Origin: a virus
Lineage: Duplodnaviria; Heunggongvirae; Uroviricota; Caudoviricetes
Reading direction: 5' to 3' (one strand)
Length of the DNA stretch: 7,092 nucleotides
Virus record (IMG/VR): IMGVR_UViG_2534681912_000006
Shown here: one piece after another, positions 5,782 through 7,092 of the stretch
How the letters are laid out: every line of letters begins with the position of its first letter
Position numbering within the stretch: position 1 is the first letter of the stretch
Position numbers and translations under genes: made by a program
Notes under the pieces: generated by a model
Databases searched by the model: none
What the model saw: the letters and a program-made list of their open reading frames with translations, nothing else
What the model was told of the DNA's origin: nothing

Positions 5782-6672
5782 ATGAATAAAAAATATGAAC
5801 TGGTTGTTAAGGGGATAAATAATTACGGGGATAAGGTTACTGTTACTGTGAAGCCGGAAGGTGACGGGCAAGCGTCGCTGTTGTTGCCAGATGTGGCGAT
5901 TAGTCTTGACCGTACTGAAGGTGCCACGCTGGAGTTTTACGAAGCTGAGGCGAAAAAGCAGGCGAAGCAGTTTTTCATGGATGTTGCTGCCGGGTTATGT
6001 GAATGGAACGAACCGTTGCCGGAAAAGCGCCCCGTAATTTTAGAGGCGCAGGATGTGTTGATAACCTACAAAGGAAAGCTACCGGGAAGAATTACTTGTT
6101 CTCTGAAGATGCCGCCGTCAACACTGCGGTCAGAAAAAGATGATGTTGAATCACGTATTGAAAAACTGGAGAGCTACGTCGTTGAGCTGAATAAGAAATG
6201 GTCGATATTGGTGCCTTCTGGCGATGAAAAGCAGTTTGCTGCGTTTGACGATTATTGTCGGAAAGTGATGAGCAGAAATCTCGCAGAGTGTTTCAGTATT
6301 CATAATGATAATTTCAGTGAGCTGGAATGGGAGTGTAACCGGCCATCCTTTGTTGTATCCGGTGATGCTGGGAAAATAACCATCTCAGAAAATGGGAAAG
6401 TAACACCTCCATCGCACCAGCACAGTGAGGAGCTCATTGAATTTGCCATTGATTACCTGAAGAACAATAAAAAGCAGGGGCTGATGAAGCGCGTTGGCCG
6501 TTGCATGGGATATCTTCAGGTAGCCGCTGAGATTGAAGCGCTGGCCAGTGGTGCTGATAAGGATGCAATTGTGCGGGAGGCTCTTCTTCGTGATTTTAAT
6601 ACTCCACCCTTTAAAAAAGTGCCGGCTTACTGGCTTCATCCGGGGCTGACTTATCTTAAAGTGCGTATTTAG
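5782..6672 (+). CDS. Hypothetical protein, 296 aa from ATG 5782 (GTG 5779 also possible); unrecognised, inserted between holin and endolysin
   Basis: Long ORF with its ATG 4 nt after the S stop codon; the SD GGGGAGAG lies inside the 3' end of S. No TM segment, signal peptide, P-loop or other motif I can recognise. Codon usage is AT-leaning, including rare ATA (5815-5817) and AGA (6088-6090). Confidence 0.75.
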   Translation: MNKKYELVVKGINNYGDKVTVTVKPEGDGQASLLLPDVAISLDRTEGATLEFYEAEAKKQAKQFFMDVAAGLCEWNEPLPEKRPVILEAQDVLITYKGKLPGRITCSLKMPPSTLRSEKDDVESRIEKLESYVVELNKKWSILVPSGDEKQFAAFDDYCRKVMSRNLAECFSIHNDNFSELEWECNRPSFVVSGDAGKITISENGKVTPPSHQHSEELIEFAIDYLKNNKKQGLMKRVGRCMGYLQVAAEIEALASGADKDAIVREALLRDFNTPPFKKVPAYWLHPGLTYLKVRI

Positions 6673-6708
6673 TGGGCCAGGGACAGCGGCTGAATATTTA
6701 ATATATCC

Positions 6709-7092
6709 ATGAACACCAAAATCAAATACGGCCTGTCGGCTGCCGTTCTGGCGCTGATTGCCGCTGGTGCGCCTGCGCCTGACATTCTCGACCAGTTTCT
6801 GGATGAAAAGGAAGGCAACCACACCACAGCATACCGTGATGGTGCAGGTATCTGGACCATCTGCCGTGGTGCCATCATGGTGGATGGCAAACCTGTCGTT
6901 CCGGGCATGAAGTTGTCGAAGGAAAAATGCGACCAGGTTAACGCCATTGAGCGTGATAAAGCGCTGGCGTGGGTGGAGAAAAACATCAGAGTGCCGCTGA
7001 CCGAACCCCAGAAAGCGGGGATCGCGTCATTCTGTCCGTACAACATTGGTCCCGGTAAGTGTTTCCCGTCGACGTTTTACAGACGAATTAAT
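6709..7092 (+). CDS. R: SAR endolysin R (GH24 T4-lysozyme-like phage lysozyme), 5' 128 codons; continues beyond the window end
   Basis: ATG 6709. The N-terminal weakly hydrophobic Gly/Ala-rich segment YGLSAAVLALIAAGAPAP is a signal-anchor-release domain. The catalytic E-x8-D-x5-T triad is present (EGNHTTAYRDGAGIWT). No stop codon before the window end. Confidence 0.9.
   Translation, partial: MNTKIKYGLSAAVLALIAAGAPAPDILDQFLDEKEGNHTTAYRDGAGIWTICRGAIMVDGKPVVPGMKLSKEKCDQVNAIERDKALAWVEKNIRVPLTEPQKAGIASFCPYNIGPGKCFPSTFYRRIN

Follow-up and report, generated by a model that had tools for sequence, protein, structure and literature searches.

Introduction

The one relative of the gene considered here for which there is experimental information is ydfR of the Qin prophage of Escherichia coli K-12, which lies between a P21-type holin gene and a lysozyme gene in the order essQ-ydfR-rrrQ. 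A bacterial two-hybrid screen picked up K-12 YdfR (Göpel 2026, PMC13232886), which falls into the same interaction class (group II) as RapZ, the reference binder of the N-terminal domain of RNase E (Rne) (PMC13232886). Residues 1-72 of YdfR are enough for a two-hybrid signal with Rne(1-597), with a weaker signal for Rng, and the signal seen with Rne(1-597) is absent with Rne(1-415); full-length Strep-YdfR furthermore co-purifies Rne(1-598) together with DNase-resistant nucleic acid (PMC13232886). In growing K-12, ydfR is silent, with almost no reads, and overproduction of YdfR neither slows growth nor is toxic (PMC13232886). Here, we analyze a 7,092-nucleotide (nt) stretch of DNA from a virus of the Caudoviricetes (IMG/VR record IMGVR_UViG_2534681912_000006; the whole stretch is called the window below), in which a gene for a protein of 296 amino acids (aa) occupies the corresponding slot between a P21-type pinholin gene (S) and the gene of a signal-anchor-release (SAR) endolysin (R).

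DUF1327 genes of this kind sit in one of the best-studied gene cassettes of biology, in many Shiga toxin (Stx) phages, and their role is uncharacterized. In the literature, we found the term "DUF1327" in a single genomics paper only, and two papers on the lysis cassettes of Stx phages do not discuss an insert between S and R. An earlier note, made from the letters of the window without database searches, had described the gene as an unrecognized and unusual insertion.

A long YdfR protein in a P21-type lysis cassette

We find that the 296-aa protein is, as judged from its sequence matches, almost certainly a long form of the YdfR/DUF1327 family, whose genes are optional accessories of the P21-type lysis cassettes (pinholin plus SAR endolysin) that lambdoid prophages of E. 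coli carry; none of our tests speaks against this identity. Residues 1-100 match the Pfam family DUF1327/YdfR (PF07041) over positions 1-88 of its 93 profile positions, with a score well above the curated gathering score (136.9 versus 25 bits, E = 2.7e-40). PHROG 1085, a group of long YdfR-type phage proteins of unknown function, is matched over the entire length of the protein (residues 1-296 on profile positions 1-296 of 296, E = 1.5e-189). BLASTP aligns it with K-12 YdfR at 46% identity over residues 1-74 (E = 7e-21), and this similarity falls on exactly the region of YdfR that binds RNase E. As a whole, the best explanation that we can offer, tentative and less likely than not, is that of an optional YdfR-family lysis-cassette gene whose product would act as an RNase E adaptor.

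The exact 296-aa protein is present on 966 public contigs, under the names "YdfR family protein" (also the RefSeq and nr label), "DUF1327 domain-containing protein" or "Phage protein," and the 891-bp gene is found at 99% identity or more in 329 complete E. coli records, that of ATCC 25922 among them. Databases thus already list the gene, the family to which it belongs and the place that it occupies, and this is not a new element; with the Pfam and PHROG matches, a RefSeq name and occurrence in hundreds of E. coli genomes, the earlier description of the family as unrecognized falls away. Searches with the 296-aa protein against NCBIfam profiles returned noise only, and no PHROG or Pfam match of a lysis category was obtained for it.

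Annotation of these copies is uneven. In ATCC 25922 (L005, 12001-12891), RefSeq/PGAP calls a 100% identical 891-bp gene a truncated pseudogene, covering its first 336 bp only and "missing C-terminus"; this call looks like an annotation artefact, because the ATCC 25922 DNA is 100% identical to the intact ORF (open reading frame). In some other genomes (hits H127 and H128), DNA of the C-terminal module stands without any annotated feature, and this conserved module is often left unannotated.

Predicted expression with the lysis genes

The ORF listing opens the frame at a GTG (5779..6672, + strand), but the start shared by all homologues is the ATG at 5782 (MNKK or MKKK), for a product of 296 aa (Table 1). 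The S stop codon TAA (5775-5777) lies 4 nt before this ATG, and the GGAG of a Shine-Dalgarno (SD)-like GGGGAGAG, read from the sequence within the 3' end of S, lies 9 nt 5' of it. BP-4795 and K-12 Qin show the same SD motif and the same 4-nt gap from stop to ATG; in 933W, both serve R. Sequence comparison marks the 296-aa ORF as a genuine coding gene and not a chance ORF, because its ratio of nonsynonymous to synonymous substitution rates (dN/dS) against homologues is 0.17 to 0.36 in the C-terminal module and 0.39 to 0.66 for the whole gene, and ten invariant residues are kept at about 30% overall identity. No sigma-70-like promoter was found ahead of the gene on the + strand and no terminator of its own, the sole nearby hairpin (6631-6648) being weak and inside the ORF. 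We read the gene as transcribed with S and probably translationally coupled to it, so that its product would be expected late, alongside the lysis proteins.

The encoded protein is soluble by its hydropathy (highest Kyte-Doolittle mean over 19 residues 0.75, versus 1.7 for both S and R), with no hydrophobic or membrane segment at this window size. The ORF has a G+C content of 46.1%, compared with 55.1% for S and 53.6% for R, and holds four ATA and two AGA rare codons. On these points, the earlier note read the locus well: it had described a real, soluble and AT-leaning gene, its ATG 4 nt past the S stop with the SD inside S, made late with the lysis proteins and using ATA and AGA codons in a phage with tRNAs of its own, with a pinholin upstream and a SAR endolysin starting at 6709.

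S is the upstream partner of the 296-aa gene in the late lysis operon, and its N terminus carries Met1 and Met4 (MYQM...). The N terminus of R is hydrophobic and of the SAR type, MNTKIKYGLSAAVLALIAAGA. An antisense 145-aa ORF (6385-6822, - strand) that overlaps the C-terminal module was discarded as spurious, with no family match and a junk-like sequence.

TABLE 1 Positions of the 296-aa gene, its parts and other features in the window
Feature	Position	Strand	Description
YdfR-family gene, long form	5782..6672	+	296 aa, ~33.4 kDa, isoelectric point (pI) ~6.0, soluble, cytoplasmic
DUF1327 core, residues 1-75	5782..6006	+	Modeled as three beta strands, then a long helix; predicted local distance difference test (pLDDT) 62-85
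Linker, residues 76-121	6007..6144	+	Conserved PEKRPVILEAQDVLITYKGKLPGRIT.SLKMPPSTLRSEKDD; low confidence, no regular secondary structure; pLDDT 25-37
Spacer, residues 122-182	6145..6327	+	Modeled as acidic helical hairpin or coiled coil, pI 4.7; helices 122-146 and 149-170; pLDDT ~50-60
C module, residues 183-296	6328..6669	+	Modeled as three strands and four helices; basic, pI 8.9; pLDDT 80-94
SD-like GGGGAGAG	5767..5774	+	Within 3' end of S; read from the sequence
P21-type class II holin (pinholin) S	5562..5777	+	71 aa; PF04971, E = 9e-33; phrog_9876 and phrog_20 (holin)
SAR endolysin R	6709..7092	+	3' end outside the window; PF00959, E = 1.8e-15; phrog_7 (endolysin)
Two phage tRNAs	1125-1375	+	Anticodons CAT (Met per ARAGORN) and TCT (Arg)
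117-aa ORF	1488-1841		phrog_2873, function unknown
Small RNA STnc100	2074-2263	+	Rfam RF02076, full-length, 132 bits versus gathering score of 47
111-aa ORF	2289-2624	-	98% identical to "anti-adapter protein IraM"; no Pfam match
DUF1737 ORF	2870-3061	+	63 aa
SASA + DUF6645 ORF	3052-4845	+	597 aa
DUF1378 ORF	4997-5179	+	60 aa, E = 1.5e-36
DUF826 ORF	5217-5486	+	89 aa, E = 5e-38

The mode of expression also bears on the possibility that the gene is defence, superinfection-exclusion or abortive-infection cargo in a variable prophage slot, which we regard as quite unlikely. Without a promoter and terminator of its own, expression in a repressed lysogen is not expected, and the defence hidden Markov models of PADLOC-DB v2 gave no significant match (best PbeC, E = 0.049, 9.9 bits over 60 residues). 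Nor did Pfam, NCBIfam and PDB-sequence searches of the 296-aa protein return a nuclease, nucleoside triphosphatase (NTPase), TIR, Sir2 or membrane-effector signature. The near absence of ydfR reads in growing K-12 and the lack of toxicity of the overproduced short form point the same way, while the increase of the Qin cluster under cold stress, taken by Göpel et al. from a public expression database, speaks for such cargo (PMC13232886). The same can be said of the G+C content below that of the neighbors, of the slot being filled in some phages and empty in others, with extensive shuffling of modules, and of the raised dN/dS of the N domain among close relatives. A classical lambdoid moron, with promoter, gene and terminator of its own, was considered and rejected in view of the 4-nt gap, the missing + strand promoter and the weak intragenic hairpin, low G+C content being the sole moron-like trait.

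A polymorphic slot between S and R

Polymorphism at the S-R slot is known, and a ydfR-family gene is a standard optional member of the cassette. YdfR-family genes in this slot span 103 to 333 aa (K-12 Qin, BP-4795, phage 86 and many Stx1a/Stx2c phages), with occupants of 114 aa in BP-4795 (ORF47), 211 aa in PhiR5_1, 268 aa in phage 86 and 329 aa in Stx2_95, and S abuts R in 933W, VT2-Sakai and Min27. Among 60 rows taken evenly from the 368 phage records that match the region, the slot is filled by a YdfR-family gene in about 14, and S and R are direct neighbors in about 37. The earlier statement that R normally follows S directly is therefore right for the 933W type, whereas K-12 Qin and about a quarter of the sample have a YdfR-family gene there. 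The earlier note had likewise weighed an unusual insertion against a standard, conserved member of this cassette type, and the latter is largely what we observe. The ydfR-family gene is dispensable for lysis, because close relatives such as 933W are without it.

Across 5,426 complete E. coli genomes, megablast places the window-type holin gene at 8,935 places in 2,450 genomes, the 5' part of the DUF1327 region at 3,749 places in 1,333 genomes and the C-terminal module at 952 places in 777 genomes, which are rough place counts, the co-location of matches not having been checked. By DNA matching, the DUF1327 part is thus present in about one-fourth and the C module in about one-seventh of complete E. 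coli genomes. Elsewhere, many versions are shortened, divided or reordered, with lengths of 114, 162, 183, 211, 213 plus 75, 268 and 305 aa. In other E. coli prophages (L006-L009, 4001-5189), one of which adjoins stx genes (L008), the modules are both split and permuted, with a 213-aa gene for spacer and C module, a 75-aa DUF1327 gene and an antisense 95-aa ORF (phrog_10490, function unknown) ahead of R. The length variants (P0058, P0045, P0051, P0116 and P0095) and the antisense ORFs of the slot have no extra Pfam domain.

We observe that the 5' end of R varies in step with whether the slot is occupied (junctions compared: window 6673-6725, L015 540-600 and L004 2570-2680). When the slot is occupied by a ydfR-family gene, R begins MNTKIKYGLS after ...ATATCC, with no visible SD and 36 to 50 nt past the upstream stop (36 nt in the window, where an SD is likewise not obvious), whereas R of 933W begins MSRKLRYGLS and has its ATG where it can be coupled to S, at a distance of 4 nt from the stop. 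Given the altered 5' allele, the spacing and the lost coupling, slot occupancy must therefore alter R translation. This speaks for a lysis-timing modulator that tunes pinholin triggering or the release or synthesis of the SAR endolysin, perhaps through contact with the cytoplasmic tail of S or by making translation of R independent of that of S, as do the place of the gene between S and R, its coupling to S and the tie of the family to lysis cassettes even in distant phages. We nevertheless judge such a modulator unlikely, and neither it nor defence cargo, the two roles proposed in the earlier note, gains support here. The 296-aa protein is soluble and without a membrane or periplasmic segment, unlike known antiholins and releasins (S107/S21-71, T4 RI and Mu releasin); S retains Met1 and Met4, as does the dual-start S21; close relatives lyse without the gene; and distant homologues lie upstream of the holin and not between holin and endolysin, so that conservation does not extend to the precise slot. 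A link of ydfR to envelope integrity, from a genetic screen, is cited by Göpel et al. (PMC13232886), although ydfR is absent from the main text of the screen paper cited.

Four modules under different selection

Four parts can be drawn from alignments A1-A4 and from an AlphaFold2 model built with distant homologues (Table 1). In the model, the DUF1327 core has strands at residues 6-14, 18-26 and 38-43 and a helix at 50-73, and these residues 1-75 are homologous to the part of K-12 YdfR that is sufficient for RNase E binding. Short forms, BP-4795 ORF47 among them, share the segment of residues 76-121 (A1), and the Pfam DUF1327 match reaches residue 100. The spacer is the most variable and most AT-rich part (40% G+C) and the site of a 33-aa insert in 329-aa variants (A1). 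The C module holds all ten invariant residues (G239, R240, L245, Q246, A248, P276, K278, W284, P287 and Y291; A3 and A4), which fall in the motifs GRCMGYLQVAAEIEA, NPPFK and PG.xYLK.RI.

No Pfam family covers the C module, and its relatives amount to only 25 representative clusters among 1.84 billion proteins. A scan of species-representative genomes for its motif returned three loci only, all in Escherichia or Shigella, and a tblastn search of the phage collection with a distant homologue found the same Stx phages only. With respect to structure, Foldseek on the better model found nothing in the PDB at E <= 0.001, thus no usable structural relative, and the profile of alignment A2 found nothing below E = 0.09 among PDB sequences. 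Since both N domain and C module are modeled as three strands followed by helices, the C module was also considered as a diverged copy of the N domain, which was rejected at the sequence level (hhalign probability 0.6%).

The C module has a dN/dS of 0.16 to 0.36, pointing to purifying selection, and the N domain a dN/dS of 0.5 to 0.8 among close relatives and of 0.14 against K-12 YdfR. We take the C module to be functional, because this low dN/dS is accompanied by the ten invariant residues and a confidently predicted fold (pLDDT 80-94). These values also weigh on the reading of the gene as filler, that is, a mosaic remnant of no phage function that decays slowly and persists because it is linked to the lysis genes. 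The many truncated, split and rearranged versions, the pseudogene calls made by PGAP for some copies and the N-domain dN/dS of 0.5 to 0.8 are what such a remnant would show. The constraint on the C module and on the N domain against K-12 YdfR, the identity of the intact 296-aa sequence on 966 contigs, the persistence of the two-domain architecture at about 30% overall identity and the likely artefactual nature of the ATCC 25922 pseudogene, whose DNA matches the intact ORF throughout, nonetheless make filler an improbable explanation.

Relatives beyond the cassette

Distant homologues (P0126-P0141) share about 30% identity overall and 35 to 46% over the C module. All have the C module and, ahead of it, a DUF1327-like N domain; the middle varies, and in P0126 the two are joined directly. 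This suggests that the N and C modules work together, because they are fused here and in distant relatives and occur as adjacent separate genes in swapped order elsewhere.

The tie to lysis genes extends beyond the Stx-type phages of E. coli. Two genes separate the start of a P21-type holin-lysozyme-Rz cassette from the homologue P0141 or less, as P0141 stands two genes upstream of it, and L017 and L014 carry homologues just upstream of the holin. In the viral contig L014, the homologue precedes a holin of the lambda-S type, an ORF without assignment at the place of the endolysin, and Rz; this homologue is related to P0127 (L016) over its N-terminal 84 residues only, and the two loci have an upstream DUF4406 gene in common. 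Linkage to the start of the lysis region is conserved, and the exact S-R position is not.

At the L016 and L014 loci, DUF1327-like domains are present twice. The second copy is a small DUF1327-like ORF (phrog_30780, matching phrog_2735 weakly) that follows the YdfR-like gene, which is 297 aa long in L016 and 196 aa in L014 (second ORF at 2883-3116 and 4909-5184, respectively). In L014, this ORF stands just before the holin, and the L016 contig ends ahead of any holin.

A possible link to RNase E

By analogy with the short K-12 protein, we put forward a late-expressed RNase E binder or adaptor as a possible, if less than likely, mechanism. The 296-aa gene is read from the Q-dependent late transcript, and its product should be made with the lysis proteins. 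The N-terminal DUF1327 domain would dock on the N-terminal, catalytic half of RNase E of the host and, with lower strength, on RNase G, and the C module, carried on a flexible linker and helical spacer, may offer a second binding surface for RNA or another protein. Late in infection, the protein could then act as a modulator or adaptor of RNA decay by RNase E, whether it protects the long late transcript or guides RNase E elsewhere, to name two examples. A broader and more doubtful proposal is that the long YdfR proteins form an undescribed class of two-ended phage adaptors, with a DUF1327 head on RNase E and a C module that brings a specific RNA or protein, by which RNA decay would be reprogrammed just before lysis.

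Several points weigh against an adaptor of RNase E. Binding is known only from the short K-12 protein, mostly when overproduced, and its overproduction altered few transcripts; moreover, the RNA that co-purified could, according to the authors, have come from a contaminant (PMC13232886). For the 296-aa protein, binding would follow from homology over residues 1-74. The N-domain dN/dS among close relatives fits relaxed constraint as well as an arms race, and with truncated or rearranged versions in many prophages, decay may be under way in some copies.

Should the long forms share the RNase E lead, temperate phages would manipulate host RNA decay late in infection, and if the adaptor reading is true, it would provide a function for an uncharacterized K-12 gene and a new protein domain. 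In Stx phages, any change in late-transcript stability or lysis timing could affect toxin yield.

Upstream of the lysis genes

The window phage looks like a non-Stx relative of the Stx phages. STnc100 lies between the phage tRNAs and a nanS-p-like gene, where Stx phages carry stx, and the stretch that follows the tRNAs (1376-2870) has no stx genes, holding instead the 117-aa ORF, STnc100 and the antisense 111-aa ORF. The IraM-like protein that this last ORF resembles is encoded at the equivalent place in an ATCC 25922 prophage.

The NanS-p-like sialate O-acetylesterase seems split, with the DUF1737 ORF overlapping the start of the SASA ORF in another frame; L006-L009 have a single protein of ~655 aa, and the ATCC 25922 copy is annotated as frameshifted. 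The split in the window may be a frameshift or mark a pseudogene. Between the esterase and S, the DUF1378 and DUF826 ORFs are small, conserved and of unknown function, and the same pair was noted in a published survey of Stx2a phages.

Comparison with known systems

K-12 YdfR (P76160) has a homologous N domain, lies in the same slot and shows the same 4-nt spacing from the holin stop. With 103 aa, it ends in a short helix, whereas the 296-aa protein adds the segment of residues 76-121, the helical spacer and a 114-aa C module, all missing in K-12 YdfR. The downstream junction also differs, with the window gene stopping 36 nt before R and K-12 ydfR overlapping rrrQ by 4 nt (annotated coordinates). 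Two phage proteins come closer. That of Stx2_95 (BCI50300.1, 329 aa) shares slot, N domain and C module, with 86% identity over aligned codons and a 33-aa insert in the spacer, and gp05 of phage 86 (YP_794052.1, 268 aa) shares the same three traits at 78% identity over aligned codons, with its spacer replaced and an antisense ORF before R.

RNase E is the target of the phage proteins T4 Srd, T7 gp0.7 and phiKZ Dip, which are early or middle proteins of virulent phages. The 296-aa gene, in contrast, is a late-operon gene of a temperate lambdoid phage, and its product has no sequence or fold similarity to any of the three. If the RNase E lead holds, it would resemble T4 Srd in acting via the N-terminal catalytic half, a likeness that is one of action and not of family.

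RapZ presents a small RNA to the N-terminal domain of RNase E, and both RapZ and YdfR co-purify with RNA, the RNA binding of YdfR being putative. Although the 296-aa protein has no homology to RapZ, a two-module protein with one RNase E-binding end fits a RapZ-like adaptor design.

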